From Kiritimatiellia bacterium (GTDB lineage: Bacteria > Verrucomicrobiota > Kiritimatiellia > UBA8416 > JADHWI01): a DNA stretch of 64,000 nucleotides. Under the pieces are notes generated by a model. That model saw only the letters and a list, made by a program, of their open reading frames with translations. It did not search any database and was not told the origin of the DNA. The position numbers were made by a program, and so were the translations under genes. Shown here one piece after another: positions 17,468 to 35,986 of the stretch. The first letter of the stretch is position 1. Each line of letters opens with the position of its first letter. The stretch is taken from assembly GCA_030744755.1 (NCBI GenBank), contig JASLPY010000002.1, forward strand, positions 67,006 through 131,005, read 5' to 3'.

Positions 17468-18637
17468 CTACCTCAGCATGGTTTCGTAGCATTCTGCAAG
17501 CCGTTTCTTGAACTGCTGGAAGTTATACGTGTCGTCTATCAGCCGGCGTCCGTTCTCTGCCAGTCTTTTCCGTAACTGGGGATCATCCAGCAGATTGCAG
17601 ATTGCCCGTGCGAATTCAGGCGGCTTGGGTTCGGCGAGAACTGCAATGGTCTCGTCCAGGATCAGCCGGTTTGCATCGGTGTCGGTTGCCACGATTGCGC
17701 TTTCGGCTTTGAGGTAATCGAGGAGCTTGAGCGGAGTGTTCACACCGCTGAGCCGTGGAGATAAGAGGATGTCAGCCGCAGCCAGGAAGTGGGGCAGGTC
17801 GTCCGGGGGTATCTTGCCCGCAAAGGTCACCGAATCCTCACAGTTTCTGTCCGTCAGCCACCGCTTCCTCTGTTCGATTTCCCCGGGCGTGCCGCCCACA
17901 ATCACGAACCGTGCCTCCGGATGACTCTTAACGACTTCGGGAACCGATTCGAACATAAGGTCGACTCCCTGATAAACGGCAAAAGATCCCACGAACATCA
18001 CAAGTCTTTCTTCCTGTGAGCCCGCGAGTTCTTTCCGGTGTGCATCGGCACGCTCCGGGGTAGGTTCAACAAGAGATGATGGAATGTCGAAGATGTGGTG
18101 ATGAGATGCGTGCCCCGCCATGGCCCTGGTCTGCGCGACAAGACCTTCTCCCGTTCCTATCACCGCATCGGCCCTGCGGACTATGAAGCGTTCCAGTGCC
18201 GCATACCCGCGCATCAAAAAGTTGCGAAGGGCGCCTTTCTTGTAGGCAGAAGGATCGCTGTGCTTCTCGTACACAAGTTTGCTCCCGGCAACCTTTGCAA
18301 CGAAAACGCCTATGGCCCCAGCATCTTCGACGCCATGAATAACTGCGTAACGGTTTCTGCGAGCCAGGGACAGGGCCTTGAACAGGAGAATGATATCGAA
18401 AAGCGCCTTCGATACTGACGGTCCTATCGGAACGTTCTTCACGCCCAGAAGGTTCGGAACCCTGATCACATTGACCCCATCAATCTGCCGATCTTCGCCA
18501 ATGGGCAGAGTCAATAGATCCACCTGATATCCGGATTCTGCCAGTGCCTGCAGATCGAATCCTGCCCGTATGGGTGATCCCCGCCACTGGAAAAACGGTT
18601 GCGGCAGAATGAACAGAACTTTCTCAGCGTCACTCAT
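17468..18637 (-). CDS. Family 4 glycosyltransferase (GT-B)
   Basis: GT4 pattern with an N-terminal acceptor domain. C-terminal ..FVGSFAVYQGVDLMFES.. followed by a TGEGL/E-x7-E-like region. Confidence 0.85.
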   Translation of the reverse strand: MSDAEKVLFILPQPFFQWRGSPIRAGFDLQALAESGYQVDLLTLPIGEDRQIDGVNVIRVPNLLGVKNVPIGPSVSKALFDIILLFKALSLARRNRYAVIHGVEDAGAIGVFVAKVAGSKLVYEKHSDPSAYKKGALRNFLMRGYAALERFIVRRADAVIGTGEGLVAQTRAMAGHASHHHIFDIPSSLVEPTPERADAHRKELAGSQEERLVMFVGSFAVYQGVDLMFESVPEVVKSHPEARFVIVGGTPGEIEQRKRWLTDRNCEDSVTFAGKIPPDDLPHFLAAADILLSPRLSGVNTPLKLLDYLKAESAIVATDTDANRLILDETIAVLAEPKPPEFARAICNLLDDPQLRKRLAENGRRLIDDTYNFQQFKKRLAECYETMLR

Positions 18638-18817
18638 GTCTATTTAAGTTTCCTTTGTGCTTCGTACTTTCGTATTGTGAACGGAAAGAGACGGCATGCC
18701 CCACTAGTAGGGATTTTCTTGTTGCAAATCAAATCGTTTCTTGCAGAATGCCGTCTCAATTTGCGCGGCGGGACCGAGGATGACGAACAAGCCGCGACAC
18801 AAAACCCGGAGAGAATC

Positions 18818-21040
18818 ATGGGTACATCCTTGGACGTGCGTTTTATATTCAGGCAGGCGATGCGCGCCTGCCTTCCTGTTCTACTGGCCGCAGGAGTGGG
18901 TTGTAGCCGCGCGCCTGAACCCGTCGGTGACGCACCCGTTGTGTACGATTTTGCAGAACGTGCGGAACATGCCATCCAGGTAGGTACATGGGGTGAGCTC
19001 GATCTTGGCAGCAGTGATACGGACATCTTCCTTGCAAAGGGATGGGCCACACCGGGGCAGACGTCGGATGGCACTCCGGCACGATGGATGTCCAAGAAAG
19101 TGGCGGGTGTCACCTTCTTCCTTTCCGAGCCGGCCGATCTGACCATGACCGCCAGTTGCAAGCCTTATACAAGAAGCTACATGGCACAGACTCTGACCAT
19201 CGTGGTGAACGGCAACGTGGCGGCAAAGCAGGAGCTTGAACGTAGTTCATCTCTTTCCGACTACACGTTCAAGATCCCGTCCAGTTTTCTTCTCAGGGGC
19301 AACAACGAAATCGAGTTCAAGGCCAGGTATGCGAGTCGTCGGCACGGCACGGCTATTCGCTTCGGCCGCTTGGAGATGTCGGCAGCATCCGGACCCACAC
19401 CGGAACTACCACCTGTCGGAAGAATCGGGGATCCTTTGTTGCAGGAACCCGGGACACGTGTTGCCTGGCATATCGTGGCGCCGCAAGCCGGGTATGTCAG
19501 GGTTCAACCCGAGTTTCAAGCCGTTTCACCGGGGGGGGAATGCAACGTTGTGTTTTGCCTGGATGGGGACAGGTACGAGATCGGAACGTTCACTGAAAGC
19601 CGGAAGGAACCGCAAGTTCTCTCACTTGCTCGCTGGCCGGGAGCGCGAGGAAGGATCGAGTTCGAGGTCCTGGGGACCAATGCTGTTCATTGGAAAGGCG
19701 CAGTCATTGGCGGCCGGGTATCCCCGAAGGACGTCAACATTCTCTTCTTTACCATCGACACCCTGAGGGAAGACCACGTTGGGGCTTACGGATATCAGCG
19801 GGATACTACTCCGTGTTTCGATCGTCTCGCCACGCGGGGTACGATGTTCCTCAACGCGTTCGTGTCGTCTAATCTGTCTTCACCTTCACATGCCTGTATG
19901 CTGACTTCACGCTACCCCCAGAGTCACGGGCTATTTGCTAATGGCAGAACCATGGACCGTCAGCAGCTCACAGTGTCGCAGCTCTTAAGAAGGGCGGGCT
20001 ATGAAACGGCGATCTACTCAAACTTTCCCCTTCTCCACAGGGGAGATATGACCGGTAAAGGGTTCACGACGCGCAGGTATGTTCCCGGCACGGCAGACAC
20101 GCCCGATGTCTCGGGGAAAGAGATGAATGTCTACGCCGCCGCCATGAAATGGTTGAAGTCCAACAGGAAGAAGAAGATGTTCCTGATGGTTCACAGTGAG
20201 TATCTTCACCTGCAGAACATACCAGAGCCCTACGATGCAATGTACTGGGAAAAGCCGGCCGACATCACCGGCAAGAGCTACTTCCCCGCCTTATCCGAAA
20301 AACAGCGAAGCACGATGCGCAGGGAGTACAACCAAAAGCACATCGACCTTTCGGAGGATGAGATTCAGTCGGTCACGGACTACTATGATGGTGCGATACG
20401 TTTGACGGACGATTGCATTGCTGCCTTCATGGATGTTGTTGGTTTCTATGGTCTCGATCCTTTTACGGCTGTTGCGATTACTTCGGATCACGGAATCAGC
20501 ATTGGTCAGAATCATCGCATAAGTCACACGGGATGGCCCTTCGACCATCTTCTCAAGGTTCCAATGCTCTTCGTACTGCCGGGTGTGGACCAGGAGGCGG
20601 GAAGGTCGGTTGAAGGGATCGTGGAGTCTGTCGATATTGCGCCCACGCTTCTTTCTTACACGGGCATTTCCGTTCCCCGGCGAATGCAGGGCATTGACCT
20701 GCTGCCATGGATCGTTGCCAACGGGAGGCCATCGGACGAGGTCAAGGAATGCTCTTACGCGGCGCTGAAGGGATACTCACGCTGGTACTCCATAAGGACA
20801 AAGGAGTGGCGCTACTCCGTGAATGCAGAGGAAAAGGAGATCCTGGAAAAGAATCCTCGCAGTGACGAGCAGCCGGTATCGGTAGTGAGAGATTTTCCGA
20901 AGGAGCGGGAAGAACTTCGCAAGAAACTGTTCCACTGGGTAAATGCCACTCCGGACGTCACTGAGGAGACAGACAAGCATTTGCCGCCGGAGATTACAGA
21001 AATGCTCAGAAAGGCAGGTTACCTTGACGACATCCAGTGA
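18818..21040 (+). CDS. Sulfatase-like hydrolase (alkaline-phosphatase superfamily) lipoprotein with an N-terminal beta-sandwich domain
   Basis: Ribosome-binding site ggagag before the ATG at 18818. Lipobox LAAGVGC. C-terminal domain ILFFTIDTLREDH... The active-site stretch SSPSHACMLTSR aligns with the canonical C/S-x-P-S-R-x-x-x-L-T-G-R motif. Confidence 0.75.
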   Translation: MGTSLDVRFIFRQAMRACLPVLLAAGVGCSRAPEPVGDAPVVYDFAERAEHAIQVGTWGELDLGSSDTDIFLAKGWATPGQTSDGTPARWMSKKVAGVTFFLSEPADLTMTASCKPYTRSYMAQTLTIVVNGNVAAKQELERSSSLSDYTFKIPSSFLLRGNNEIEFKARYASRRHGTAIRFGRLEMSAASGPTPELPPVGRIGDPLLQEPGTRVAWHIVAPQAGYVRVQPEFQAVSPGGECNVVFCLDGDRYEIGTFTESRKEPQVLSLARWPGARGRIEFEVLGTNAVHWKGAVIGGRVSPKDVNILFFTIDTLREDHVGAYGYQRDTTPCFDRLATRGTMFLNAFVSSNLSSPSHACMLTSRYPQSHGLFANGRTMDRQQLTVSQLLRRAGYETAIYSNFPLLHRGDMTGKGFTTRRYVPGTADTPDVSGKEMNVYAAAMKWLKSNRKKKMFLMVHSEYLHLQNIPEPYDAMYWEKPADITGKSYFPALSEKQRSTMRREYNQKHIDLSEDEIQSVTDYYDGAIRLTDDCIAAFMDVVGFYGLDPFTAVAITSDHGISIGQNHRISHTGWPFDHLLKVPMLFVLPGVDQEAGRSVEGIVESVDIAPTLLSYTGISVPRRMQGIDLLPWIVANGRPSDEVKECSYAALKGYSRWYSIRTKEWRYSVNAEEKEILEKNPRSDEQPVSVVRDFPKEREELRKKLFHWVNATPDVTEETDKHLPPEITEMLRKAGYLDDIQ

Positions 21041-23204: not shown

Positions 23205-25382
23205 TCAGAACCATTTACGAAAAGCCAGATCAAACTCCCGTTGGCCGTTTGGGTCGATTTCTATCAGGTCGATGTCTTCATCGACATGTCGTGGGCGAAT
23301 CTCCACCGGCGGGTCTACTTTCATACCGTCGACCCAATTGTATTTCAGGACAACCGGCTGCGACGGGTCTTCCACCACGACGTGCAAGTTGTTGATACTG
23401 GGCTCAACCGTGCCTGCCCCTTCCAGAAACATGGAAGATTCGCGCTTCACACGGAACACGTACTTCTTCCGGTTGTTCCCCCACATGTATACCTCTTCAA
23501 ATAGATCCGGTCGCTCCCGAAGATGCCTGACCCATCTGCCGTGATAGGTCACAACATGGGTCACGTTGTAGGCGTGGAAGAATTCCTCCATTTTCTGATG
23601 ATCGCGGCGATAGCGCTTGGGCGGATAGTTATACTCAACAAGAGCGGGCGAAAAATGATAGTAGTCGCATGCCATCATCTCTCGTCCGGTCAATGCCGGC
23701 AGCACGGCAACATGACCGCCTCCATAAGCATGAACCGTACTCCCCGCAAACATTATGCGGCCGTCTTCCGGGGTGTTGTCGCGTATCCATTCCGCCGCCT
23801 GCAGAATCTCAGATGACATGGGACGGAACTTCTCCGGCTGACGATTCTCATACATGTTTGACACGTTGAGTCCGCCAAGCAGGAGAAGGGCGGTGAGACC
23901 CGCGCGAACGGGACTCAGCCTGAGGGATCCGTCTTCAAGGAAACGGCTGGCCCAGAGCCCGGCGGGGATTGCGGCCAGGAAGAACATGGCAATCCCGCCC
24001 CTGGAAAGTTCGAAAGCCGGCAGCAGAAGTTCTCCCCACGACGAGAGGATCAGAAGGCAGGCTAGTACCGGGACAAGAAACTGACGGATGTCGCGGCGCG
24101 GGAGCACGGTCACTCCCAGCAGGCCAAAGAAAACTATCAACGGGTGTGCCTGCCATAGTTGCTCTCTCATCGTGCGGAACCCACCCTTAAGTCCTTCAAT
24201 CCAGGGCTGCTGCTTGCCGGCTTCCTCGGCAAAAGCCTTCACGTCAACGCGGCTCAAAATCGACAAAAAGTAGGGCATGCAGACCAGGACGATCATTACT
24301 GTGCAAAGGGCAAAGAACAGGATGCGCCGCCTGGACAAGCGTGGAATGCAGAACAGCATTCCCGGGACAAGCGTGAGGGCAATGAATGCCGAGGGGGGCC
24401 ATGCAAGTAATAGAAACGCACTGAAAACAAGCAGAACCGCGGCCCAGGGCTCTGGTGTTTCCACCCACAGGAGCCTGTAGACGCATGCGCACACCAGCGG
24501 AAGAAACGATATTGAGAGACACGCCCCGATGGTTCCGAAATGAAGGAACCAGACAAAGAAGTGGCGGCTTACGCCCAGGGCCACAATGGCCGCGCACATA
24601 GACGCGGTCGTGGACCCCTTCATCATACGCGTCGCGCCCATCAACATGAACGGAATGAACACAATAGACAGAAACGCGATCGCCGGCGTGTAAACATTGA
24701 GAATGTTCCCGAAGCGCCAGAGAGGCCACAAGAGCGTCCCGGGACATGTCGTACCGGAGGCGACGATGTAGACAGCTTCTTTCCCACCGTTCCAGAAGGG
24801 GTTGTAATAAACGAGCCGGGGAAATGTCTTGCCGAAAACCCAGAAACGAAACATGAACGAAGAATGATCGTCATTGTAAAGAGGCATGCCCTGCGTCGTA
24901 TCAATCAGCTCATGAATGCAGCGAAACTGACATACCAGCAGGATAACAAAGGGGATGACCCAGCTTCTCCTCCAGCGAACGACAAACACCGGTGTCAAGA
25001 TGGCGGTAAACAATGCAAACCTGGCCATCCACGAATCGAACAGGACGGAAACAGGGTCGCTGGTCGGAAGCCATCGCAGGAAGTAGAACCTGCTCTGCAG
25101 TCCCGCGCTGGATGCCAGGTAAAGGGCCATACAGCAAGCCAGTACAATGCCCGGCAGCAGTTCCCCCGCGGCCTTTCCATCCTTTTCGGGGTAGCGCCGC
25201 CGGTACCACTCTGCGCCGGCACATGCCATGGCTACCCATATGAGCGGTGCGGCAAGTTTGCCGATTACGAAGCGCGCCTGCGTCTGGAGAACGCAAAGCA
25301 GTACCAATCCAAGTACGGCGGCCGATAACACCGCCAGCGCGGATCTGCTGTTGTTACCCTTGCTCATGCCCGAGATGCTCAT
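23205..25382 (-). CDS. Large polytopic membrane protein with a C-terminal extracytoplasmic domain (GT-C-like, family unclear)
   Basis: About 725 aa. More than 12 hydrophobic helices, then a roughly 200-aa soluble C-terminus. ATG at 25382 follows a TTG. Confidence 0.6.
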   Translation of the reverse strand: MSISGMSKGNNSRSALAVLSAAVLGLVLLCVLQTQARFVIGKLAAPLIWVAMACAGAEWYRRRYPEKDGKAAGELLPGIVLACCMALYLASSAGLQSRFYFLRWLPTSDPVSVLFDSWMARFALFTAILTPVFVVRWRRSWVIPFVILLVCQFRCIHELIDTTQGMPLYNDDHSSFMFRFWVFGKTFPRLVYYNPFWNGGKEAVYIVASGTTCPGTLLWPLWRFGNILNVYTPAIAFLSIVFIPFMLMGATRMMKGSTTASMCAAIVALGVSRHFFVWFLHFGTIGACLSISFLPLVCACVYRLLWVETPEPWAAVLLVFSAFLLLAWPPSAFIALTLVPGMLFCIPRLSRRRILFFALCTVMIVLVCMPYFLSILSRVDVKAFAEEAGKQQPWIEGLKGGFRTMREQLWQAHPLIVFFGLLGVTVLPRRDIRQFLVPVLACLLILSSWGELLLPAFELSRGGIAMFFLAAIPAGLWASRFLEDGSLRLSPVRAGLTALLLLGGLNVSNMYENRQPEKFRPMSSEILQAAEWIRDNTPEDGRIMFAGSTVHAYGGGHVAVLPALTGREMMACDYYHFSPALVEYNYPPKRYRRDHQKMEEFFHAYNVTHVVTYHGRWVRHLRERPDLFEEVYMWGNNRKKYVFRVKRESSMFLEGAGTVEPSINNLHVVVEDPSQPVVLKYNWVDGMKVDPPVEIRPRHVDEDIDLIEIDPNGQREFDLAFRKWF

Positions 25383-25398
25383 CAATGTGCGCGGTTGG

Positions 25399-27825
25399 CT
25401 ATGACGGTTCTTTCCCCAGGAAGAGAGGAGCCGAAACGTAGAGAATCGCAGCTATAGCAAACACTGTCGTGAAACCGAAGTTGACGGCTATCAGAACACT
25501 GAGAGCTGTGCCGATAACCGTAAAGTAACCGTTCACTGCCCATCCCCAGGGGATGATCGGCTTGCCTGCTGCTTTCAAGTGACGGATTCCGCTGGGCATC
25601 GGCATGCCCATGAAGAAACCTGCGATTCCGGTGAAGAGGATGGCCACAAGCATCCGTACCGGAAGAGAGCTTCCGAGAAAGCGCCCTGTTACTGCAGGGG
25701 TCCCGAAATGTACGGCCAGCACGACGAGTGCGACGATTAACAGGAGAATACGCAGGTTCTTGACCGACGGGTTCATGATGCCCGAGCAGAGACTCCCCAG
25801 ACCGGCAAACACCAGCAGGCTGGCAAGCACGGAGGCCATACTGTACACGGGTGCTCCCAGGAACAGCACCAACTTCTGGATAAGACAGATTTCCACGAAG
25901 ATGAAGGCTATGCCGAGAAACGCGAAGTAGCCCAGAGGCCTTCTGTTCTTCCTGAGAGTCTCGCGTAGTTCGCGTTTGGAGAACATGGGGATGCCGAAGA
26001 ATACCGTTGAAAGCAGCAGCCCCTCAAAAAGGATGATCAGCGGTGGCAAATCGCCCTTGGGAACTCTTTTGTCAAGCTTGTTGGGCGCTTCCACGTGGTA
26101 GATCTCGCCGGGCAGCATCGGCATTTCATCCCGTTTTCGGTCCTGAAGTCCAAGAATCTTGAAATGATTAAAGAAAGGTTTCTTGTCAGTTGACGGTTCG
26201 AAGTTAAAGCATCCCAGCCGCCAGAACTTGCTGGGATCCTGCGAAGTGGCAATCTGGTAATAGAGGTTATTGTCGATATCAGGAAGATCCTCCGTGCGAT
26301 GCGGCGCATAGAGGATCTTCCTTTCGTGATCTCCACTTTCGTAGAAGTTGTAGAGAGTATCTATCTCACCTTCCGTGAACGGAGACTTCTTCATCATGAA
26401 AGTGTTCACATGCCACTGGCTTCCCTCGCCGACGAACAGCCGTTTCGAATACTCTTCCGGGCTCATCCCCATTTGCCTGAACATTTCAACGGCAACACTC
26501 AACATGCGGATGGTGCCCCACCTGCTGATTGCCAGGATGCCGTCATCCGTCAGATGATCGTAAAAGTCGCGAAACGACTCGACGGTCAGCAGATACGTCT
26601 CGCTCAGGTTCAAAGAACCGTTCTGAAAGGCGATAGGAGTGAAATTGTTGACCTGGTGGATCAGGTCAAATTCCCGGTTGCTTCGCCTGAGGTAGCTCCG
26701 GCCTTCATCCACCACCAGCTCGCTGTATTTGCCGTCGGTGAAGAGCCCTCCGGCGTAGTCCCGGTAGTCCACGGTTACGAATTTGGCGATGGCCGGGTCC
26801 ATCTCGATTCCAAGCACGTGCCGGGCACCCATCATGAGCCCGTAGAGCGAATCTTCCCCGCCCGACGTTCCGATCACGCAAACGGTATGATTCGTTTTGA
26901 TCGTGTGCGGGATGGCCTTGTGATGCAAAAACTTGGCGGCACGTTCAAGCAGTGCCTCGCGTTTGGCGGCCAGGCTTTCGAAATCCCCGTCGAAATTCAC
27001 AATGGCCGATTCGTTCACCCCCCCCGCAATCCACACTCGTTTGCGGCTTCCCGACATGCCGGCGATGTCAACTCTCGACAGGGCGCTCCACTTTGTTGCT
27101 TCAATATTGCCCTTTTCCAGGTCGTTCTTGAATGAACGTTTCGAGACATGCACCTTCAGAGCTATATGGTCAGCTGCCCTGGGCGTCCAAAGAGCGGTCA
27201 ATACCGCAGCTGCAACTGCAGCCACGATTCCCACTGCGTTCAACTTGCGTGATGGACCTTCGCTGCCGATGAGAAAAGTGAATGCACCAACGATAGCCGT
27301 ACCCGATGCAAGTACCACCAGACCCTGTGGCTGAATCAACTGGATAAGCGGAACAAGCGCAAAGCATCCCAATCCCGCGCCAACCAGGTCGGCAAAGTAG
27401 TAGATGTTGGCCTTGCTGCCGCGCTTTTCGAAGAGGAACCCGATGATCAATCCGATGAATGCGAAGGGGACACCCATCGATACGAAGACAGCCGTGATGT
27501 TCAAGAGCTCCCGCAATACACCGTCGGGAAATGATGGCAAATGAATCGGCACGGTGTTCATGACGTGGAAGGCTGTGAAAAACGTGATGCCTGAAAGCAG
27601 GGCGCATGAAAACAGAAAAGCGGTGTCCTTTATCTGCAGCAACTTAGGCCAGCACGTAAGAATGACCCCGCTCAGACCAAAGCCGAACATAGCGGTACTT
27701 ATCACGAGATAGGCATAGTTGGCCCAAACGCTGAACTCGAAGATCTTGGTGGCGGTGATTTCGAACAGCAGACTTGCAAACGCGACAAGAAACACGGCAA
27801 TAAGCTCACAATAGCGACGTCTCAT
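25399..27825 (-). CDS. Spermidine-synthase-like fused membrane protein (transmembrane block, Rossmann aminopropyltransferase fold, transmembrane block)
   Basis: Ribosome-binding site gggaaaggg before the ATG at 27825. N-terminal transmembrane bundle. Central VIGTSGGEDSLYGLMMGARHVLGIEMDP...DLIHQV matches spermidine/spermine synthase motifs. C-terminal transmembrane helices. Confidence 0.75.
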   Translation of the reverse strand: MRRRYCELIAVFLVAFASLLFEITATKIFEFSVWANYAYLVISTAMFGFGLSGVILTCWPKLLQIKDTAFLFSCALLSGITFFTAFHVMNTVPIHLPSFPDGVLRELLNITAVFVSMGVPFAFIGLIIGFLFEKRGSKANIYYFADLVGAGLGCFALVPLIQLIQPQGLVVLASGTAIVGAFTFLIGSEGPSRKLNAVGIVAAVAAAVLTALWTPRAADHIALKVHVSKRSFKNDLEKGNIEATKWSALSRVDIAGMSGSRKRVWIAGGVNESAIVNFDGDFESLAAKREALLERAAKFLHHKAIPHTIKTNHTVCVIGTSGGEDSLYGLMMGARHVLGIEMDPAIAKFVTVDYRDYAGGLFTDGKYSELVVDEGRSYLRRSNREFDLIHQVNNFTPIAFQNGSLNLSETYLLTVESFRDFYDHLTDDGILAISRWGTIRMLSVAVEMFRQMGMSPEEYSKRLFVGEGSQWHVNTFMMKKSPFTEGEIDTLYNFYESGDHERKILYAPHRTEDLPDIDNNLYYQIATSQDPSKFWRLGCFNFEPSTDKKPFFNHFKILGLQDRKRDEMPMLPGEIYHVEAPNKLDKRVPKGDLPPLIILFEGLLLSTVFFGIPMFSKRELRETLRKNRRPLGYFAFLGIAFIFVEICLIQKLVLFLGAPVYSMASVLASLLVFAGLGSLCSGIMNPSVKNLRILLLIVALVVLAVHFGTPAVTGRFLGSSLPVRMLVAILFTGIAGFFMGMPMPSGIRHLKAAGKPIIPWGWAVNGYFTVIGTALSVLIAVNFGFTTVFAIAAILYVSAPLFLGKEPS

Positions 27826-27947: not shown

Positions 27948-30305
27948 TCAAGGGAGGAGAAGGAGATGGCCATTCCAGGAGAACCGGGGGAGATCCTGCG
28001 CTCCGGGGGCGGGGGCAGAGAAGGTGAAGAGTGAGTAATGAGGAAAATCAGTTCTTGCGAACTCAGCTTTCTCCTTAAGGACCGTGCCCAGGAAAGTCTC
28101 CATTTCATCTGCAAGCCGGGATACCACGGCAACCCCCAGGCCATCGCGGGGCCGGAATGTTCTTTCGATCCTTGTGTACGAATACCGTGGATTGAAACGG
28201 GGATAGACCGGCAGGCGGTTGTCCCTCGAAGGCAGTTTTGTGATCAGGGAGGAGCTTAGCCAGCGGTCCGTCACCGTGAAATCCACCCCCTTATCGATTA
28301 TCGCTTCGGTAATGTCTTCGACTTCCTCTTCTGAAACCGGAGATCCATTGCCGAGCTGCTTGAACAACCTCAGCTCGTTAATCTCCCAGGGTCGTTGAGA
28401 AACGATGTCGATCTTGACGTATTGCGCGGTAACGGGTTCGAAGCGAATCTCACCCCGTGCGTAATGCCCCATGATGTACGCCTTGTTGCCGTCAACGTAG
28501 GCATGCAGTGCCCTGTCGATACCGCCACGCCTGATGTAGTCGGTGCCATTGGTGGACGTTGACAGGTGCCAGGTTCCCGGCAGAAGGTCACTTTTGGTAG
28601 ACGTTAAGAATGCACAGCCGAGAGTGACCGGACGTTGCGCATCAATGATGATGCTGCAGGTCACGGGTCCGGTTTGGCTGCGGGCAAAGGCCAATGCAGT
28701 ATTCGCAGAATGATCGATGGCGAAGGATGGTTTCCCCGTGACCGGCCCGCTGGTTGTAATTCCCAGGTCGGCCAAGGGTACCGAGGATTCATTGATCCGA
28801 GGAACTTCGATCGAGTGAAGTATCATCTCTCCGCTATCGATAACTTTGTAATCGGTAATACCGGCCGCGGTGAAGTTTGCTTTCACCTTGCTGAAATGCC
28901 TCCTCGAACACATGAACGCCATGTTTGGGTCCTGTTCTGCGATCTGGGCGGAAGGGTCGTAACGTTCGTAATAGGAAGAAACAAAGCGCAGGCGATCCCT
29001 CGCGAAGAAGCTGAGAATCTGGCCGGAAAGTCCGCCGATGTCAGATCCAATGATGGTGACGTTTTTCAATCCCGCCGTTTCCACCAGGTCGACAACCTCG
29101 AAGTACTCGGCGCACCTTGCCTTCTTCTTTGGGGCCTTTGCCCTTGAGGTCATTTCTCCTGAGATCGCATTGAATGAAACCCAGGCGACAAGAGCCAGCC
29201 ACGCAAACCGTCTGAGCATACGATTCTTTGCTGTCACCGCGGAGGCGAAGGTTGTGCAGACAAGGACAATGGTCAGCGGGATGAGGTATCTGGGGGCGCC
29301 AAGACCGGCCATGGGGTGGGGCAGGTACATCACGAGGAATACGCCGGCGAACAGCAGGGGAACCCAAACGGTTCTGTTGCGCCCCGGCCGCAAGCTGGTG
29401 CAAACATGGCACAGGAACGGAACGGTCAGTACGCCAAGACAACCCAGGACAAAGAGATTGACCATTGTGAACTCACGAGTGACCGGCCATGTGAAAAGCG
29501 CCGGCATGGTTTCGCAAAGTACCTTCAGGTTGCCGGGAATCAGTTTCAACGATGGTGTGTCGGTTGTCATAGAGTCGAATGCGACATCACCTGTAACGAG
29601 CAATACGGGAATCAGGCCCAGCAACGAGACTGCGCCCGCGAATGCAAGGGCGGTCATTGTGGTCTTGTTGATCCCTTTTCTACAAAGGGTCAGCAGCAGG
29701 ATCAGCGCACCGCTCGCGAGGTACGATAGCACCTGGAGATTTGTCCATATGCCGAGCGCAGCAGACACACCCATTCCTGCCGCGTGGAGCCATTTGCTTC
29801 GCGGCGACAGGTCATGGAGAAGCATCCGCAGGGCAAGCCAGAGGAAGAAGGTTCCGAAGAAGAAGGTGCCAGGATAACCGCCGTGTGCTGCAAGGCTGAA
29901 CCATTGTGCATACCAACCAGGCACCGCCACGCAAAGAGCCGCAGCAATGGCTCCGGTCCGGCCGAACAGTTCTCTGAACAGAAAGTAAGAAGCGGCAATC
30001 CACATCAGTGCAAACAGGATGGGAGATAAGGACAGGGAAACATCCGACACTCCGAAGATGAGGAACATCAGAGAAGCAAGGTAAGCCTCGAGGGCGCCCA
30101 TGTAGCTTTGGCCATAGAAGAACAGCGGACGTGACACACCTTTAAGAATATGCAGTCCCATGAGACCAACTGTCGCCGTATCGAACTCCACGAAAAATGC
30201 AAGTATCGACATTCTCAGCCGAACAAGAAACCCAAGCAGCAGTATGGCCGGCAACGCCAGTTTCCAGGCGCATTCTCTAAGAGATCTTTTCTTTTCCTGT
30301 GACAT
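27948..30305 (-). CDS. ArnT/PMT-like GT-C glycosyltransferase (GT39/GT83-type) with a C-terminal discoidin-like domain
   Basis: DTATVGLMGLHILKG...FFYGQSYMGALEAYLAS is the PMT_2/ArnT-family N-terminal signature. The C-terminal ..QYVKIDIVSQRPWEINELRLFK resembles an F5/8-type C domain. Confidence 0.75.
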   Translation of the reverse strand: MSQEKKRSLRECAWKLALPAILLLGFLVRLRMSILAFFVEFDTATVGLMGLHILKGVSRPLFFYGQSYMGALEAYLASLMFLIFGVSDVSLSLSPILFALMWIAASYFLFRELFGRTGAIAAALCVAVPGWYAQWFSLAAHGGYPGTFFFGTFFLWLALRMLLHDLSPRSKWLHAAGMGVSAALGIWTNLQVLSYLASGALILLLTLCRKGINKTTMTALAFAGAVSLLGLIPVLLVTGDVAFDSMTTDTPSLKLIPGNLKVLCETMPALFTWPVTREFTMVNLFVLGCLGVLTVPFLCHVCTSLRPGRNRTVWVPLLFAGVFLVMYLPHPMAGLGAPRYLIPLTIVLVCTTFASAVTAKNRMLRRFAWLALVAWVSFNAISGEMTSRAKAPKKKARCAEYFEVVDLVETAGLKNVTIIGSDIGGLSGQILSFFARDRLRFVSSYYERYDPSAQIAEQDPNMAFMCSRRHFSKVKANFTAAGITDYKVIDSGEMILHSIEVPRINESSVPLADLGITTSGPVTGKPSFAIDHSANTALAFARSQTGPVTCSIIIDAQRPVTLGCAFLTSTKSDLLPGTWHLSTSTNGTDYIRRGGIDRALHAYVDGNKAYIMGHYARGEIRFEPVTAQYVKIDIVSQRPWEINELRLFKQLGNGSPVSEEEVEDITEAIIDKGVDFTVTDRWLSSSLITKLPSRDNRLPVYPRFNPRYSYTRIERTFRPRDGLGVAVVSRLADEMETFLGTVLKEKAEFARTDFPHYSLFTFSAPAPGAQDLPRFSWNGHLLLLP

Positions 30306-31294: not shown

Positions 31295-32680
31295 ATGGAG
31301 CACTCAAGTTCACAAACGTCCCTTCGCACCCTGTATATCATGGCTCTCTCCGTACTGCTGGCAGTTCCTTCTGCCGGCCGTGCCGAAGAAACCCCGTCCT
31401 GTGCTGTTCTAACATTCGCGCACGGGACAGGCGTATCGCCTTCCGAATCGGTTCTTCTAACCAGGAAGTACTGCGATGCTCTCGACGTGCTGGAGACCTA
31501 CCAACTCATGTCCTATCGCCAGATGAACGGTAGCCTGACAAAGAGCGGTTTCGGCAGCACCCGGTACAGCTCGAATCTCGAGAGAGCGATAGCCGCCGGT
31601 AGACTACTGGCGGTCGACTTCCTGGTATTTGGAACGGCGTACAGCGATGCAAACGGGAGTTACCTGAATTCATCCCTCCTGGACGTGAGATCCGGACAGC
31701 GTATAAAGGCGGTTGTTACGAGTGCACGCGGCGGAATGGAAGATATGGCCTCGCTAATTGCAACGGACAATATCCGGGCACTTCTCGGCGGGGATGCTGA
31801 TCAGCAGCAACTGCCGGCGCCGGTGCCTGCCCCGCGAACCGGTCGGCAGGAGATTCCAATGTACCAGCCCGGCCCGGATCGTTCTGCCGTGGACTATTCT
31901 GATGAACCGGGTCCCAAGACGGCGGTTATGCGGACCGGTGAAGGCGGGCGGTGGGACTTCCTCCCTGACGTACGCGGTATCCAGCTGCCCAGCCTGGGTG
32001 GAATCCCGGAAGACCTGAGGTTCGAGCTGGCAGCATCGATTACCAGGATACGTGACAGAGAAATGACGGAAAAGGGAGGCCTCGACAATAAATCGGTCTT
32101 CAAACATTACAGGGTTTCGTCCGACAGGTTCCTGCTTGATGCCGACGTGATCCTGATGGACAGGTTGCGCGTTCGGGGCACTTTGGGTGTGGCAGACCTC
32201 GAATTGCACTCCAGCGAAGGATCGACCTGGGAGTTTGATGCGGCTTTCGCGTATGGAATATCGGCAGAAGCCCTGCTTTACAGACTCCCCAATGCCCCTG
32301 TTTCGTTCTTTGCCTCGGTCGGGTACCTGGCCTTCAATGCCGACGATGGATCACTCACCGGCGTGGATGAGCCGGACCACCATTTCGTCGGTTGGGACGA
32401 AATAGACGTAGACTGGAGCGAAATCGGTTTTTCTGTATGGACGAGGTACGAAGTTACGGAAGACTGCAGAATGGATGCCGGTGCCAGGGTGATAAAGGTC
32501 TCGGGAGACGAATCCGGGAGCGGGGGTGGTGTCAGTGCGAGCGGGGATCTTGACGAAGACGACAGCTTCGGTCTATTCACTGCCCTCGAGTACGACATCC
32601 TCGATCGACTCAGAACGAAGCTCCAGGTGAATTTCGTGGACAGCACCGAGCTCCGAGTTGCTCTGCAGTACGAGCTCTGA
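31295..32680 (+). CDS. Putative outer-membrane protein with an N-terminal periplasmic alpha/beta domain
   Basis: Signal peptide. N-terminal domain of about 170 aa (CsgG/TolB-N-like, weak). C-terminal beta-rich half ending ..RVALQYEL. Confidence 0.45.
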   Translation: MEHSSSQTSLRTLYIMALSVLLAVPSAGRAEETPSCAVLTFAHGTGVSPSESVLLTRKYCDALDVLETYQLMSYRQMNGSLTKSGFGSTRYSSNLERAIAAGRLLAVDFLVFGTAYSDANGSYLNSSLLDVRSGQRIKAVVTSARGGMEDMASLIATDNIRALLGGDADQQQLPAPVPAPRTGRQEIPMYQPGPDRSAVDYSDEPGPKTAVMRTGEGGRWDFLPDVRGIQLPSLGGIPEDLRFELAASITRIRDREMTEKGGLDNKSVFKHYRVSSDRFLLDADVILMDRLRVRGTLGVADLELHSSEGSTWEFDAAFAYGISAEALLYRLPNAPVSFFASVGYLAFNADDGSLTGVDEPDHHFVGWDEIDVDWSEIGFSVWTRYEVTEDCRMDAGARVIKVSGDESGSGGGVSASGDLDEDDSFGLFTALEYDILDRLRTKLQVNFVDSTELRVALQYEL

Positions 32681-32747
32681 TTGTTCCCCCGTCAGGGTTC
32701 ATCCACCGCACATCCGGGACTCGGTCAGCCGATGCAGATGCCGGCTA

Positions 32748-34124
32748 ATGACTTTGCCTATGAAATTCAGGCGGGATATCTCCGATTACCGGAACGTGGA
32801 AGGGATAGCAGCCATAGTCAAGAATGGCCTCTGCCACAGGTGTGGTGCATGCGTCGGGATATGCCCGGCCGGTACTCTTTCACTGAACGGTGAGGGGTTT
32901 CCAAAGCAGACAAGCGAATGCATAAACTGCAATCGCTGCGTCCAGGTGTGTTCCGGAATTGTCGTGGACTGCGAAAGTATGGGCCGCGACATGTTCGGCG
33001 AGACGTACCGCTATGGTCCGGCACTTGGTGAATTCATAGACACGGTTGTGGCACATGCCACGGATGAGGAGATACGCTGGTGCGGTGCAAGCGGAGGCGT
33101 GATAACCCAGCTACTGGTTTATCTTCTCGAATCGGGCCAGATCAAGGGCGCGCTGGTCGCAGTGCAGCACCGCGATGATCCTTCGATGGGAGAAGGAATC
33201 CTGGCGAGGACCAGGGAGGAACTGGTTGCCGCGGCACAGTCAAGATACACAACGACACCAAGTCTCACGGCTTTGAAAGATATGTCCGGAGAAGATGGCC
33301 CTTTCGCCGTGGTGGGATTGCCTTGCCAGATTCATTCGGTGCGCATGCTGCAGAAAGTCGACAAGAGCTGGGCGCGTAAAGTGGTGCTTACCATCGGCCT
33401 GGTGTGTTCACACAACCCCCCCTGCATTGCTACACGAGAGGTGGCCGCCATGTTCTCCCGGGGCAAAGCACAGCTCGAGAAGGCGCACTACAGGCAGAGC
33501 GATCAGCGCGGCTGGCCGCACGACACGGTAGAGCTCAAGTATAGCAATGGCGAAGTGCGGCGTTCACCGTTCGGACCCGCAGAGACCGTAACCCTGCTGA
33601 AGAACCTGTACCCGCTGGGACGTTGCCTGATGTGCGTGGATGCAACGGCGGAGTTTGCGGACATTGGTGTAGCTGACCCTTGGATAAGGAATGAGAAGGG
33701 CTACTGGCGATACACCGATCCCGGCGGTTGGTCCAGCTTGATAGTGCGCACCGAGAAGGCCCGCCAGGATCTGCAGTCGGCCGTGGATGCGGGTAAACTC
33801 GTTATGCATCCCCAGCCCCCGGCGGAGATCGAGGCTGGACAGTACCGCATGATGTCCACAAAGAAGATCAAGGTGCCATGCCGCCTCCTCTGGCGCAAAT
33901 GGTTCGGATGGCCAGTGCCTTTTGTGACGGCCAGCCTTCCCAAGTCATCCCCGTGGCTAATGGCGCGCTCCCTGGTATATATGGCAACCAGGGTTATTCC
34001 GGTGTGGAAGCCTTTTCGGCTGTTCCTGCTGCGGTTGGGTTTTTCGCGCGTGGGGATTCGACTCATGGCCTTCCGCAAAGAACAGAAGCGAAAGAAGGCC
34101 GTAGAGAAAGCTGCGCGGTTGTAG
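32748..34124 (+). CDS. Coenzyme F420 hydrogenase/dehydrogenase beta-subunit-family FeS flavoprotein (FrhB/FdhB-like)
   Basis: Two ferredoxin-type clusters (CHRCGACVGICP, CINCNRCVQVC), then the FrhB-like core (..GASGGVITQLLVYLLESG..VVGLPCQIHS..). Family members pair with pyruvyl transferases in polysaccharide loci. Confidence 0.8.
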   Translation: MTLPMKFRRDISDYRNVEGIAAIVKNGLCHRCGACVGICPAGTLSLNGEGFPKQTSECINCNRCVQVCSGIVVDCESMGRDMFGETYRYGPALGEFIDTVVAHATDEEIRWCGASGGVITQLLVYLLESGQIKGALVAVQHRDDPSMGEGILARTREELVAAAQSRYTTTPSLTALKDMSGEDGPFAVVGLPCQIHSVRMLQKVDKSWARKVVLTIGLVCSHNPPCIATREVAAMFSRGKAQLEKAHYRQSDQRGWPHDTVELKYSNGEVRRSPFGPAETVTLLKNLYPLGRCLMCVDATAEFADIGVADPWIRNEKGYWRYTDPGGWSSLIVRTEKARQDLQSAVDAGKLVMHPQPPAEIEAGQYRMMSTKKIKVPCRLLWRKWFGWPVPFVTASLPKSSPWLMARSLVYMATRVIPVWKPFRLFLLRLGFSRVGIRLMAFRKEQKRKKAVEKAARL

Positions 34125-34137
34125 TCACGCCGGCGGG

Positions 34138-34875
34138 TTACTTGCGCATCCTCACCACCTTGGCAGGTACACCATAGGCTATGCAGAAATCCGGGAGATC
34201 CTCCGTTACAACGGCATGCGCCCCGACTACGGTGTGACCGCCCACGGATCGGCCGTCCATGACGGTCACCCGTGCGCCCAACCATGATCCGTCTCCTACC
34301 GTGACGCCACCCAGCGTTATCGTTGGTTGATCTATGATGGGAATATCAGTGCTGTCGGTTTCGTGGGTTGCCCCCACAAGGTAACAGTAAGCAGCCAGCA
34401 GGACTTTCTTCCCTACCCGCGTGTGCCCGTATGTGCCTATCCGGCAGTAGCTGCCTATGTTTGCGCCATCGTCGATTTCTATGGTGCCTCCGGCCATGGA
34501 GATGATGGTTCCCGCACCGATGAAAACTCCATCGCCGATGACAACACCTTCGCCGTCATCTCCCTTTGCGTCTATAGTGCAGCCGCTGTCCACGATGACA
34601 TTGTCGCCAAAGCTGACACGATGAGGATGGCGGAGGACAACATTTCGTCCGATGGTAAGCCGTTTGCCACATTTCCTGAACAAGAACGGATAGAACTTGC
34701 GTCTGAGCCAGAAGCCCATTGCCCCCGGGCAGGATCCGAACAGCACTGTTATCAACTCATACTTAAGAAGATTCCACCAGCCCCCGTGACCCGTGACGAC
34801 AGTCTGGTACTGGGCGACGGGTCCGGCACCACCCGTCAGTACAACCTGTGTTCCGTCCTTCTTGAGGTCAGCCAT
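34138..34875 (-). CDS. Hexapeptide-repeat (left-handed beta-helix) acetyl/acyltransferase
   Basis: Repeated [LIV]-G-x-x-x-x hexapeptides (..IGDGVFIGAGTIISMAGGTIEIDDGANIGSYCRIG..). Start placed at the second ATG to limit overlap with the upstream gene. Confidence 0.8.
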   Translation of the reverse strand: MADLKKDGTQVVLTGGAGPVAQYQTVVTGHGGWWNLLKYELITVLFGSCPGAMGFWLRRKFYPFLFRKCGKRLTIGRNVVLRHPHRVSFGDNVIVDSGCTIDAKGDDGEGVVIGDGVFIGAGTIISMAGGTIEIDDGANIGSYCRIGTYGHTRVGKKVLLAAYCYLVGATHETDSTDIPIIDQPTITLGGVTVGDGSWLGARVTVMDGRSVGGHTVVGAHAVVTEDLPDFCIAYGVPAKVVRMRK

Positions 34876-35986
34876 CGTGTTCGCCTTCCGCCTGGACATC
34901 GTCTGCGACAGGAATCAGTTCAGCCTCGGAGAAATCGTGTTCCCGGTGCTTATACGTAATATAGAACAGGAAACCGACGATTCCCACAACTAGAAGTTTG
35001 AGCCTTATCAGGAGCCCCATGGAAAGTGCTTCGGCACTGCCGATTTCGAGTAGCCCGAAGAAAACAACGAATACCCCCTCCGTGAATCCAAGGTTCCCGA
35101 GAAGCGTTACCGGCATCATGGCCACCAGCATAGCGGCAGGTACGAGAGCCGATATCCCGAGGAAGTCGGGATCCACCCCGAATGCCCTGAAGGAAACGTA
35201 CACATTCACCCACGTCATGAAATAGAAGAAGATTGTCAACACAACAACAGCCCACAGCGCCCTCGCGTGGCCTTTCAGGGCGCCGACGGCCAGGAGCAGC
35301 TTCTGGTGGAACTTCTCGAGGTGCAAGAAGGTTCGATCCAAGAAACGCTCGAACCGGTCGATTCCCCTTGCGGACACCCCGGGGTCATCTGTCCCTACCT
35401 TCTTCCGGACGAACCCGAGGACATCCATGGCTACTCGCCGGGGAAGTCTGAGGGGTTCGGGGACTCGCCACATCCACACCATGATCGAAAGAAGGCCCAC
35501 AGCGCCCAGGGCCGGCATGAAGACAAGGGGAGACCGGTAAAGCGACGGTTTCAGTGCCGGCGCAACAATCGCAAGTATCAGCAGCAGAATGATTCCCGTG
35601 AATCTCTCTATAAAGGTGCTGACAGCCGCCTGGTACTGGTCTCCTATGTGCCTGCCGATATAGTACGACCGGACAACATCACCACCTACATTGGAAGGCA
35701 GCATATTGCTGAAAAAGTACCCGATCAGGTAGATACGCATAAGGAAAAAGAAACTGATACTCCTGCCATGCTGCGCGAGCAGCACCTTCCACTTAAGGCA
35801 GCTTGACGGAATCATGATGGGAACCAGCAGGAATGAAAGGGTGAAGTAAAAAGGATCAACCTGGGACAGGATCTTTGAGAATTCGCCTTCACGCAGGCTG
35901 GAAAACAGCACGACAAAGAACAGGACGCTAATGCAGGCTTTTGCCAGGACAACCTTGGGTTTCATGCGGCGGACTGTACTATCCAT
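34868..35986 (-). CDS. Flippase-like domain (LPG-synthase-TM/UPF0104) membrane protein
   Basis: FLLVPIMIPSSCLKWKVLL...NMLPSNVGGDVVRSYYIG matches the TIGR00374/UPF0104 signature. Confidence 0.7.
   Translation of the reverse strand: MDSTVRRMKPKVVLAKACISVLFFVVLFSSLREGEFSKILSQVDPFYFTLSFLLVPIMIPSSCLKWKVLLAQHGRSISFFFLMRIYLIGYFFSNMLPSNVGGDVVRSYYIGRHIGDQYQAAVSTFIERFTGIILLLILAIVAPALKPSLYRSPLVFMPALGAVGLLSIMVWMWRVPEPLRLPRRVAMDVLGFVRKKVGTDDPGVSARGIDRFERFLDRTFLHLEKFHQKLLLAVGALKGHARALWAVVVLTIFFYFMTWVNVYVSFRAFGVDPDFLGISALVPAAMLVAMMPVTLLGNLGFTEGVFVVFFGLLEIGSAEALSMGLLIRLKLLVVGIVGFLFYITYKHREHDFSEAELIPVADDVQAEGEHDG

Follow-up and report, generated by a model that had tools for sequence, protein, structure and literature searches.

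Spermidine synthases of the SpeE type (structures 1uir, 3anx, 1inl/1jq3 and 3o4f; PF01564) are composed of an N-terminal beta domain and a Rossmann core, in which the acidic residue of the motif GGG(D/E)G holds dcSAM by its aminopropyl amine and keeps SAM away (PMC3725402, PMC10349129). A single D-to-I exchange at this position leads to the loss of SPDS activity and the gain of methyltransferase activity, and the T. maritima variant D101I exhibits an approximately 2000-fold lower kcat (PMC3725402). Two methyltransferases related to these enzymes deviate at the same position: in plant putrescine N-methyltransferase (PMT), which evolved from SPDS, the loss of the acid accompanies the switch from dcSAM to SAM (PMC3725402), while the fungal N-terminal histidine methyltransferase NHMT (A. 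nidulans AN4663), a proven methyltransferase, carries an Ile (PMC10349129). The putative "membrane-bound polyamine aminopropyltransferases" of the PRK03612/NF002956 type, proteins of about 520 aa, combine an N-terminal TM domain with a SpeE domain.

The gene described here is located in a window of 64,000 nucleotides (the whole stretch of DNA that was analysed) from a Kiritimatiellia bacterium. It starts with an ATG codon, 5' of which a purine-rich stretch (GGAAAGGG) is found; a longer ORF starting from TTG and reaching 27951 is unsupported, as the homologues contain 806-808 aa. The product is 100% identical to MDP6522822.1, a "hypothetical protein" from a Kiritimatiellia MAG. A word-indexed search yielded 147 homologues, mostly of 770-850 aa, and the family amounts to 7,508 clusters of 50% identity at E<=1e-30, while a search of the literature on this bacterial family returned nothing relevant. 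The family is very large and apparently uncharacterised, in agreement with the first-pass annotation, which had called it widespread but uncharacterised and had correctly reported the ORF and two motif strings in it (VIGTSGGEDS, aa 317; DLIHQV, aa 387). The gene is divided into the following parts.

25399..27825, minus strand: target gene, 808 aa plus stop, coding for seven TM helices, a SpeE-fold domain and seven further TM helices (ORF and translation)
27166..27825, minus strand: N-terminal bundle of seven TM helices, aa 1-220, resembling an MFS half (hydropathy, AF2)
26518..27132, minus strand: SpeE-like N-terminal beta domain and Rossmann core, aa 232-436 (profile against PDB, Foldseek, HMM)
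26059..26517, minus strand: remainder of the soluble domain towards its C terminus, aa 437-589 (AF2 secondary structure)
25399..26058, minus strand: C-terminal bundle of seven TM helices, aa 590-808 plus stop (hydropathy, AF2, conservation)

The AF2 model of the protein (pLDDT 90.9, pTM 0.90) consists of seven TM helices, a two-domain SpeE fold and another seven TM helices. This agrees with the earlier view of a SpeE fold embedded between bundles of membrane helices, except that the assumed numbers of about eight N-terminal and about six C-terminal helices have to be revised to seven each, as obtained from both hydropathy and the model. The helices of the N-terminal bundle comprise residues 4-32, 35-64, 67-91, 103-134, 136-163, 166-186 and 193-220, and contain the conserved buried polar residues E22, K/R27, Y143 and D146, as judged from 249 full-length members. 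The C-terminal bundle contains the conserved residues E645, Q650, N765 and Y796, the first three of which are buried, and a strongly basic loop (615-630, 7 K/R) follows its first helix, TM8. When the N-terminal half was modelled alone (pLDDT 89.7), all Foldseek matches with a probability of at least 0.9 were MFS-fold transporters (TMq 0.5-0.58), and halves of NorA, DgoT, sialin and ENT1, the last with an MFS-like fold, superpose on it with probabilities of 0.9-1.0. The modelled bundle appears to resemble an MFS half also in its predicted cytoplasmic N terminus and the conserved charged residues within helices, but the likeness is not statistically significant (Foldseek E>=0.2). Sequence support is not significant either, with Pfam MFS_1 being matched by only two of 55 members (E ~1e-3), and an internal 6+6 repeat between the two membrane bundles is not demonstrable (E 0.06-0.1, probability <1%). 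Moreover, two extra helices of the target hold a domain of 370 residues, predicted to be periplasmic, where MFS proteins have a cytoplasmic loop.

The relationship of the central domain to SpeE is apparent from the family profile and the structural model. As a single sequence, the target has no match in Pfam even at E<=10 and none in NCBIfam, is missed by PF01564 and TIGR00417, thus falling below the threshold of each curated family, and reaches only an E value of 0.02 against the PDB. In contrast, the family profile detects the SpeE structures 1uir (E 4.3e-13), 3o4f (7e-12) and 1inl (1.9e-10), and the top 50 Foldseek matches of the AF2 model in the PDB are all aminopropyltransferases (1uir 1.4e-7, 1inl 2e-7). 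The homology of the target to SpeE is real but remote, and lies far above chance once the family profile is used. The family HMM scores E. coli SpeE with 49.5 bits and the methyltransferase NHMT with 16 bits, which places the family nearer to genuine SpeE enzymes than to NHMT.

Concerning the order of its parts, the target is collinear with PRK03612, and some relatives align to NF002956 through the TM region (residues 3-372 of P0045 to model positions 19-379, and residues 14-428 of P0082 to positions 23-417). This model is matched by 44 of 55 relatives at E<=1 (best value 4.7e-18) and not by the target itself; relatives that were scanned one by one remain at 22-46 bits, with 35-46 bits confined to the three collinear ones, whereas the cut-off is 472. 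The target extends over about 370 further residues, consisting of an extra subdomain and the seven C-terminal TM helices, whereas PRK03612 ends with the SpeE domain. Fungal NHMT shares with the target the succession of seven TM helices (1-215 and 1-220, respectively) and an SpdS-like domain, as well as the replacement of the acid in GxG(D/E)G (by I322 and G322) and a conserved cofactor Glu (E340 and E341). For a profile-profile comparison with the target family, the AN4663 sequence was reconstructed from the supplement of the paper and fungal homologues were gathered. The SpdS-like cores proved to be homologous (hhalign probability 95.6%, E 1.3e-8), and the full-length profiles align over the soluble core only. 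With a probability of 0.2% for the TM sub-alignments, full-length homology to NHMT is not demonstrated, and NHMT is regarded as an architectural analogue, which stops after the soluble domain, whereas the target continues with seven TM helices. PMT and the target are both SpeE folds that are devoid of the GGG(D/E)G acid, but PMT is a soluble enzyme of the cytosol and has retained the Asp residues for putrescine binding, which the target lacks.

The residues on which a functional assignment depends were located by alignment, and their conservation was calculated over 249 full-length, diverse family members.

26851..26871, minus strand: motif I, the glycine-rich GTSGGED, aa 319-325 (profile alignments to 1uir, 3o4f and 1inl)
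26803..26805, minus strand: E341, counterpart of E340 in fungal NHMT and of the Glu that contacts the ribose in SpeE (alignments)
26635..26670, minus strand: strand-4 motif FDLIHQVNNFTP, aa 386-397, at the place of DVII(S/I)D(C/S)TDP in SpeE (alignments)
26599..26601, minus strand: E409, a nearly invariant acid peculiar to the family, in the extended "gate" loop (GSLNLSE)
26173-26187, minus strand: invariant motif D547-K-K-P550-F551 (D547 100%, P550 100%, F551 96%)

Common to SpeE and the target are a glycine-rich loop, a ribose-binding Glu, an acidic-Gly adenine contact, and a Thr-x-Glu after the gate loop. In the family, position 322 is occupied by G in 93% and A in 6% of the members, G323 is conserved in 99% and D/E325 in 96%. 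E341 is aligned to VEID/CEVD of SpeE and VEIDP of NHMT and is invariant in alignment A1, with 93% E and 6% D among the 249 members. Position 374 is acidic in 96% and followed by G375 in 89%, corresponding to Asp182-Gly183, the adenine contact of AtSPDS1 (PMC6514230). The putative adenosyl-binding residues G322/G323, E341 and E374-G375 are thus conserved in the family. In contrast, the four residues connected with aminopropyl transfer, namely the acid of GGG(D/E)G, both Asp residues (the catalytic and the second one) and the Tyr of the YHE motif, all appear to be absent from the target. According to the profile alignments, G322 takes the position of the dcSAM-specifying Asp/Glu, and the target sequence HQVNNFTP would place V/N and F/T at the positions of the catalytic Asp (Tm D170/At D201) and the second substrate Asp (Tm D173), where the SpeE motif DVII(S/I)D(C/S)TDP holds the pair of catalytic and substrate-binding Asp residues after strand 4; the alignment to E. 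coli SpeE ends just short of this motif. At position 395, 53% of the family carry D but the clade of the target has F, and positions 392-394 are not acidic. The absence of the aminopropyl-defining residues argues that the target is not a spermidine synthase. The motif strings that had been read as aminopropyltransferase motifs are indeed present, but represent the generic adenosyl-binding half and not the aminopropyl-specific residues. The family also differs from SpeE by a gate loop that is about 7 residues longer and carries its own invariant Glu (E409, E in 99% of the members, with T414 at 100% and E416 at 93% as neighbours), and by an extra C-terminal subdomain with the invariant D..PF motif. 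With R376, T414, G429, D547 and P550 all conserved in 100% of the members and E409 in 99%, the domain is under strong purifying selection. The first-pass annotation had made its proposal depend on the conservation of dcSAM-binding and catalytic residues, and the outcome is divided: the loss of the dcSAM- and aminopropyl-specific residues, as read from the alignments, argues against aminopropyl transfer, while the 93-100% conservation of adenosyl-site and family-specific polar residues argues against a purely structural role.

The target is part of a glycan cluster of about 45 kb, which extends from about 15.8 to 62 kb of the window and bears out the earlier assignment to a glycan locus. Its direct neighbours are the following genes.

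27948..30305, minus strand: upstream gene in the same strand run, GT-C glycosyltransferase of 785 aa (PMT_2/ArnT-like) with a large C-terminal soluble domain
23205..25385, minus strand: downstream gene, polytopic membrane protein of 726 aa with a C-terminal soluble domain

Both of them had been described as GT-C-like, which was verified for the adjoining upstream gene (Pfam PF13231, PMT_2; E 6e-7, 30.2 bits at a cut-off of 26.1) but found no supporting match for the downstream gene, where DUF6541 remained below the threshold (18.8 bits, cut-off 29) and searches of the PDB and profiles gave no match. The 726-aa type of protein co-occurs with the closest homologues of the target: a homologue of 72% identity is encoded directly after the target homologue in the loci L001/L002, and P0389 and P0391 agree in the length of their longest contigs with the target homologues P0003 and P0004, suggesting a location on the same contigs. 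A search with an alignment of closer homologues identified only 11 genome loci. Co-occurrence of the window genes in the loci at the BLASTP level was mostly uninformative for GT-C, and GT-C neighbours were scored from Pfam matches on contigs encoding homologues. GT-C genes are adjacent or at most three genes away in the window and in the loci L003, L008 and L018. The suggested co-occurrence with GT-C genes is a recurrent feature near homologues from PVC bacteria. The distant family members in L005, L010 and L020 are located outside glycan loci, indicating that the glycan link may be clade-specific.

As to the orientation in the membrane, the numbers of K plus R per loop in 55 homologues average 1.2-4.6 for even and 0-1.2 for odd loops. 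Two relatives (P0249, P0253) carry a PA14 carbohydrate-binding module exactly one helix ahead of TM1 of the family; if PA14 is located outside, the single helix in between implies that TM1 begins in the cytoplasm. From the positive-inside rule and these PA14-bearing relatives, we infer that the SpeE-like domain is probably periplasmic. A PDZ domain is inserted within the central domain of another relative (P0246). The substrates of NHMT are secreted proteins (PMC10349129), from which an exoplasmic catalytic domain is inferred, as in the predicted orientation of the target. The periplasm-facing prediction is a point missed by the earlier annotation, and it alters the mechanistic problem.

On this basis, the protein is tentatively regarded as an extracytoplasmic alkyl transferase, probably transferring a methyl group, which would act on a glycan or glycoconjugate; this is a possible reading that we hold with less than even confidence. 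It would be an inner-membrane protein whose periplasmic SpeE-fold (class I Rossmann) domain is held between two bundles of seven helices, and which has retained an adenosyl pocket for SAM or dcSAM, has lost the aminopropyltransferase residues and has gained its own invariant residues R376, E409, T414 and D547. The combination of a kept adenosyl pocket with lost aminopropyl residues is what suggests an adenosyl-sulfonium donor. The assignments of donor, transferred group, acceptor and role of the membrane domain are speculative. A methyl group from SAM would be the likeliest candidate by analogy with putrescine N-methyltransferase and fungal NHMT, in which the acid of GGG(D/E)G is likewise replaced. 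As acceptor, a periplasmic glycan, glycolipid or glycoprotein may be provided by the neighbouring polyprenol-phosphate-sugar and GT-C machinery, and the membrane part, which looks like a transporter and has conserved charges buried within it, may bring a cytoplasmic donor or a lipid-linked acceptor to the outside-facing active site. The previous proposal of an alkyl or aminopropyl transfer to a lipid-linked or polymeric acceptor, instead of free polyamine synthesis, is retained as far as polyamine synthesis is unlikely, but not for the aminopropyl group, whose residues are absent.

Several observations count against this reading. We know of no source of SAM in the bacterial periplasm; the clade of the target has a Phe at position 395 and offers no evident candidate for a nucleophile-activating residue; the MFS resemblance has the E values, the low number of MFS_1 matches and the missing repeat mentioned above; and the distant relatives outside glycan loci speak for a glycan link limited to certain clades at most. 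We know of no established pathway of SAM-type alkylation in the bacterial periplasm, so a catalytically active domain would imply such a reaction and require a route of cofactor supply. A more specific version, which we consider quite unlikely, is that an MFS-like core of 12 helices, together with two linker helices, channels the adenosyl-sulfonium donor out of the cytoplasm and directly into the periplasm-facing SpeE-fold site, where envelope glycans or glycoproteins would be alkylated. If true, this would be a bacterial counterpart of the cofactor-supply problem of the ER-resident fungal NHMT and of the SAM transporters of the plant Golgi. The architecture itself, a predicted periplasmic, cofactor-binding Rossmann domain on a transporter-like scaffold that is genetically tied to GT-C in PVC bacteria, is testable, and an active enzyme would point to a new way in which envelope glycans are modified in Kiritimatiellia, in Lentisphaerae and across many further phyla.

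Of the alternatives, a pseudoenzyme is rather unlikely and survives best. The SpeE-fold domain would then be a periplasmic ligand-binding or scaffolding module of a transporter-like protein, binding a glycan, polyamine or nucleotide-like ligand or docking a GT-C enzyme. Such a role would fit with the loss of every aminopropyl-transfer residue, a compartment with no known SAM supply and the transporter-like membrane part, but the 93-100% conservation of G322/G323, E341, E374-G375 and other polar residues in 249 members is what a functional ligand or active site usually shows. A conserved binding site devoid of chemistry would give the same conservation pattern. If inactive, the domain would be a striking and widespread pseudoenzyme module recruited to a membrane transporter.

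A reading along the lines of the first-pass annotation, in which a lipid-linked or polymeric acceptor receives either an aminopropyl group (donor dcSAM) or a 3-amino-3-carboxypropyl group (donor SAM), appears improbable. The closest solved relatives are all aminopropyltransferases, the family HMM favours E. coli SpeE over NHMT (49.5 versus 16 bits), and close to the place of the substrate Asp of SpeE, at position 395, an Asp is retained by about half of the family; however, Gly replaces the acid responsible for holding the aminopropyl amine and shutting out SAM, the clade of the target lacks the deprotonating Asp, and no gene for a SAM decarboxylase turned up in the subset of window ORFs that was scanned. 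A reversed topology is very improbable; in this case, the SpeE-like domain would be cytoplasmic, would draw on the normal SAM pool and would add a methyl or other alkyl group to a lipid-linked intermediate in the inner leaflet. It would remove the problem of cofactor supply, and the periplasmic orientation is a prediction, but 55 sequences show a strong K+R bias that holds consistently for 15 loops, the 3TM-PA14-1TM extensions demand a cytoplasmic start of TM1 provided that PA14 lies outside, and MFS-like halves have both their start and their end in the cytoplasm. Finally, a genuine membrane-anchored spermidine or polyamine synthase is hardly credible, even if JGI names cluster members "spermidine synthase" and relatives match NF002956/PRK03612 collinearly but weakly, since neither PF01564, TIGR00417 nor any NCBIfam model matches the target, the relatives score 35-46 bits at a cut-off of 472, and all four aminopropyl-specific residues are missing, of which the D-to-I exchange alone abolishes SPDS activity (PMC3725402). 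The residues found here show that the annotation "spermidine synthase" is wrong for the clade of the target, in a family of which thousands of members carry either this label or "hypothetical".

The protein encoded at 25399-27825 (-) is a putative transferase of the spermidine synthase (SpeE) fold whose membrane and topological setting has no precedent, and it belongs to a very large, unstudied family; beyond this architecture, its function can only be inferred. The ORF called in the first-pass annotation is real, as are both sequence motifs quoted there (residues 317 and 387), and its product (808 aa) shows 100% identity to MDP6522822.1/MDP6847939.1 from a Kiritimatiellia MAG, listed as a "hypothetical protein" and named "spermidine synthase" by JGI. 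A longer TTG-initiated ORF extends to 27951, where its TTG and the stop of the GT-C gene upstream overlap (TTGA; 27949-27951 and 27948-27950, respectively, both -). This start was rejected in favour of the ATG at 27825 further downstream, which is used by homologues and database entry alike and leaves a gap of 122 nt to the upstream gene; the ATG is preceded by the purine-rich GGAAAGGG, and the close homologues are all 806-808 aa long and begin at ATG.

On its own, the sequence is too divergent to be recognised by curated libraries: it has no Pfam match even at E<=10 and no NCBIfam match, and its best PDB match by phmmer is Thermus SpeE at an E-value of only 0.02. The relationship becomes clear when a profile of 55 homologues is used instead, which matches the SpeE proteins of Thermus (E 4.3e-13), E. 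coli (7e-12), and Thermotoga (1.9e-10), and 47 of these 55 homologues individually match PF01564. An AlphaFold2 model with this alignment as input is confident (pLDDT 90.9, pTM 0.90) and shows the following parts:

residues 4-220, seven N-terminal TM helices
residues 241-276, small four-strand beta domain
residues 314-435, Rossmann core
residues 438-589, extra alpha/beta subdomain and long ordered coil
residues 590-802, seven C-terminal TM helices, accompanied on one side by short amphipathic helices

The helix count of 7+7, with which hydropathy agrees, replaces the earlier estimate of about 8+6. In a Foldseek search of the PDB, the 50 best matches are all spermidine synthases or aminopropyltransferases (E from 1.4e-7, about 260-330 aligned columns), indicating that the whole two-domain SpeE fold is present.

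The active site was audited by profile alignments to solved SpeE sequences, column read-out, and conservation across 249 full-length family members, all of which agree; residue roles were taken from the literature (PMC6514230, PMC3725402, PMC10349129). As judged from these alignments, the adenosyl-binding half of the SpeE-type site is kept:

G322, glycine loop, 93% conserved
G323, glycine loop, 99% conserved
E341, equivalent of the ribose-binding Glu, 93% E and 6% D
E374-G375, counterpart of the AtSPDS1 Asp182-Gly183 contact to adenine N6/N1, 96% acidic and 89% G

By the same comparison, the aminopropyl half has been lost. The acid of the GGG(D/E)G motif, which binds the amine of the aminopropyl group and repels the carboxylate of SAM (PMC3725402, PMC10349129), is replaced by Gly, the Tyr of the YHE motif of SpeE shows no conservation in the family, and the DVII(S/I)D-x-T-D-P site reads FDLIHQVNNFTP, with both Asp missing (position 395 is D in 53% of the wider family and Phe in the window clade). 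A single D-to-I exchange at the GGG(D/E)G position of a plant spermidine synthase ends spermidine synthesis and yields weak methyltransferase activity (PMC3725402), and the fungal N-terminal histidine methyltransferase AN4663 (NHMT), a proven methyltransferase, carries Ile there (PMC10349129). The family also has invariant polar residues of its own, namely R376 (100%), E409 (99%), T414 (100%), and D547/P550 (100% across the 249 members), of which E409 sits in a gate loop about seven residues longer than that of SpeE and D547/P550 in the extra subdomain. The first-pass annotation had held that loss of the catalytic and dcSAM-binding residues would imply a purely structural role; the outcome is split, because the adenosyl half and the family-specific invariants are kept, yet the aminopropyl half is lost, which points away from an aminopropyltransferase while the domain has no look of decay.

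NHMT is the only experimentally characterised protein of comparable layout, consisting of seven TM helices and a SpdS-like methyltransferase domain and acting on secreted LPMOs in the ER (PMC10349129). Its sequence was rebuilt from the supplement of that paper, homologues were collected, and the profiles were compared. The soluble cores are homologous (probability 95.6%, E 1.3e-8), but the membrane domains show no similarity in the profile comparison, and the bacterial family is closer to true SpeE than to NHMT (49.5 versus 16 bits). NHMT should therefore be regarded as an analogue from outside the family, which demonstrates that proteins built in this way can function as exoplasmic methyltransferases.

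We tentatively propose that the protein is an extracytoplasmic alkyl transferase, most probably a methyltransferase, in which an adenosyl-sulfonium donor would be bound via the conserved SpeE-type pocket and the alkyl group passed to a nucleophile of a glycan, glycolipid, or glycoprotein in the periplasm. The acceptor would be handled by the neighbouring GT-C system, and the transporter-like membrane domain may supply the donor or present a lipid-linked acceptor. The donor is the weakest link, since we know of no periplasmic SAM pool. A conserved pseudoenzyme module that binds a ligand would fit the retained pocket too, but appears less likely. Transfer of an aminopropyl group, as proposed in the first-pass annotation, or of an aminocarboxypropyl group would suit the fold and the adenosyl site, but is improbable with the aminopropyl half missing. 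The initial observation holds with corrections, and its interpretation is supported in part.

The central domain is probably extracytoplasmic, with the N terminus inside, as suggested by charge distribution and domain context. Across the 55 aligned homologues, predicted cytoplasmic loops average 1.2-4.6 Lys+Arg and the alternate loops 0-1.2, and the MRRRY start together with seven K/R in the loop after TM8 implies a cytoplasmic N terminus and a 370-residue domain on the outer side. In two family members (P0249 and P0253), TM1 is preceded by an N-terminal extension in which three helices are followed by a PA14 carbohydrate-binding module and a single further helix; if PA14 lies outside the cytoplasm here, as in known proteins, TM1 has to begin on the cytoplasmic side. 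In another member (P0246), a PDZ domain is inserted within the central domain. Were the topology reversed and methylation an ordinary cytoplasmic reaction, no periplasmic donor would be needed, but this runs against these features and is quite improbable. The prediction of a cofactor-binding domain on the periplasmic side is surprising and could easily be put to the test.

The membrane part plausibly does more than anchor the protein. It contains strongly conserved buried polar residues (E22, R/K27, Y143, D146, E645, Q650, N765, and Y796), and all Foldseek matches of residues 1-225 modelled on their own (pLDDT 89.7) with probability >=0.9 and TM-scores of 0.5-0.58 are MFS-fold transporters (ENT1, NorA, sialin, DgoT, SotB, LmrP, FLVCR1, and PepT), none of them significant (best E 0.2). 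MFS_1 is weakly matched by 2 of the 55 aligned homologues. A repeat relation between the two TM bundles was sought and not demonstrable, so a soluble domain held outside by two linker helices of a 6+6 MFS-like core is only plausible. Relatives are collinear, TM region included, with NF002956/PRK03612, a model of about 520 aa for a "membrane-bound polyamine aminopropyltransferase", scoring 35-46 bits where the cut-off is 472; a genuine polyamine synthase is nevertheless highly improbable with the aminopropyl site lost.

The gene is the middle one of three on the same strand, which the first-pass annotation had placed between two GT-C-like genes in a glycan locus. The upstream neighbour is indeed a 785-aa GT-C protein (PMT_2 above threshold), but the GT-C nature of the downstream 726-aa polytopic protein could not be confirmed; the latter follows the SpeE-fold gene in the closest homologous loci, and two of its homologues appear to be co-located with homologues of the SpeE-fold gene, as their longest contigs have the same reported lengths. 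The glycan context is borne out by a large cluster spanning about 15.8-62 kb of the window, with GT2 and GT4 enzymes, two SGNH/GDSL proteins, a DegT aminotransferase, an oxidoreductase-acetyltransferase fusion, an epimerase, and the following genes:

18599-21040 (+), 813-aa membrane sulfatase-fold transferase, N-terminal membrane region and sulfatase/alkaline-phosphatase-fold domain (LtaS/EptA-like)
32658-34124 (+), FrhB/FdhB-like iron-sulfur flavoprotein
34868-35986 (-) and 36093-37463 (-), tandem LPG_synthase_TM paralogues (flippase-like membrane proteins)
41233-42453 (+), polysaccharide pyruvyl transferase
42479-45010 (+), large protein of 843 aa without Pfam match
48763-50868 (-), large protein of 701 aa without Pfam match
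53175-55316 (+), 713-aa class I SAM methyltransferase-GT4 fusion, an ordinary cytoplasmic methylation route
56355-58925 (+) and 58958-60979 (+), tandem heparinase II/III-like proteins at the cluster edge, unusual beside synthesis genes

The 813-aa protein may be part of the same periplasmic modification module, because in L001/L002 a homologue (69%) is encoded two genes away from a family gene. The flavoprotein and pyruvyl transferase pairing suggests a pyruvylated glycan, and a 37% homologue of the 843-aa protein lies about 3 kb upstream of the family gene in L011.

Among PVC-clade homologues of >=50% identity, a Pfam-recognisable GT-C gene is adjacent or <=3 genes away in the window, L003 (PMT), L008 (TMEM260_N and PMT_2), and L018 (two PMT_2). 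L001 has a 717-aa partner protein, a homologue of the downstream 726-aa protein, beside the family gene, L011 is a glycan cluster without recognisable GT-C, and the surroundings in L005 are not a glycan cluster. Of the distant members, that in L009 has Wzy_C and PAP2 genes as neighbours, that in L006 belongs to a cluster rich in GT4 genes, and those in L010 and L020 have unrelated surroundings. GT-C co-occurrence thus holds in the window clade, but is not demonstrable for the family as a whole.

The family was described initially as widespread but uncharacterised, and literature searches on it found nothing. A search of 1.84 billion 50%-identity clusters with the 55-homologue profile gives 33,222 representatives at E<=1e-3, 20,625 at <=1e-10, and 7,508 at <=1e-30, the best 150 being nearly all full-length matches of 760-850 aa. 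Genome matches include Lentisphaerae, Verrucomicrobiota, Kiritimatiellae, Desulfarculus, and Thermodesulfobacteriota MAGs. In the Desulfarculus MAG, two proteins of about 815 aa (L006:290-2740 and L006:7528-9975) are encoded upstream of the distant family member, one directly adjacent, with no Pfam match and no paralogy to the window protein detectable by BLASTP. Two Verrucomicrobiota MAGs contain two family paralogues each (L013/L017 and L014/L015). In a Kiritimatiellae MAG (WLWN01000001.1, L021:8162-12181), the family gene comes immediately after a DDE transposase and is broken up into short ORFs, with the match starting at query residue 40, and is probably a disrupted copy.
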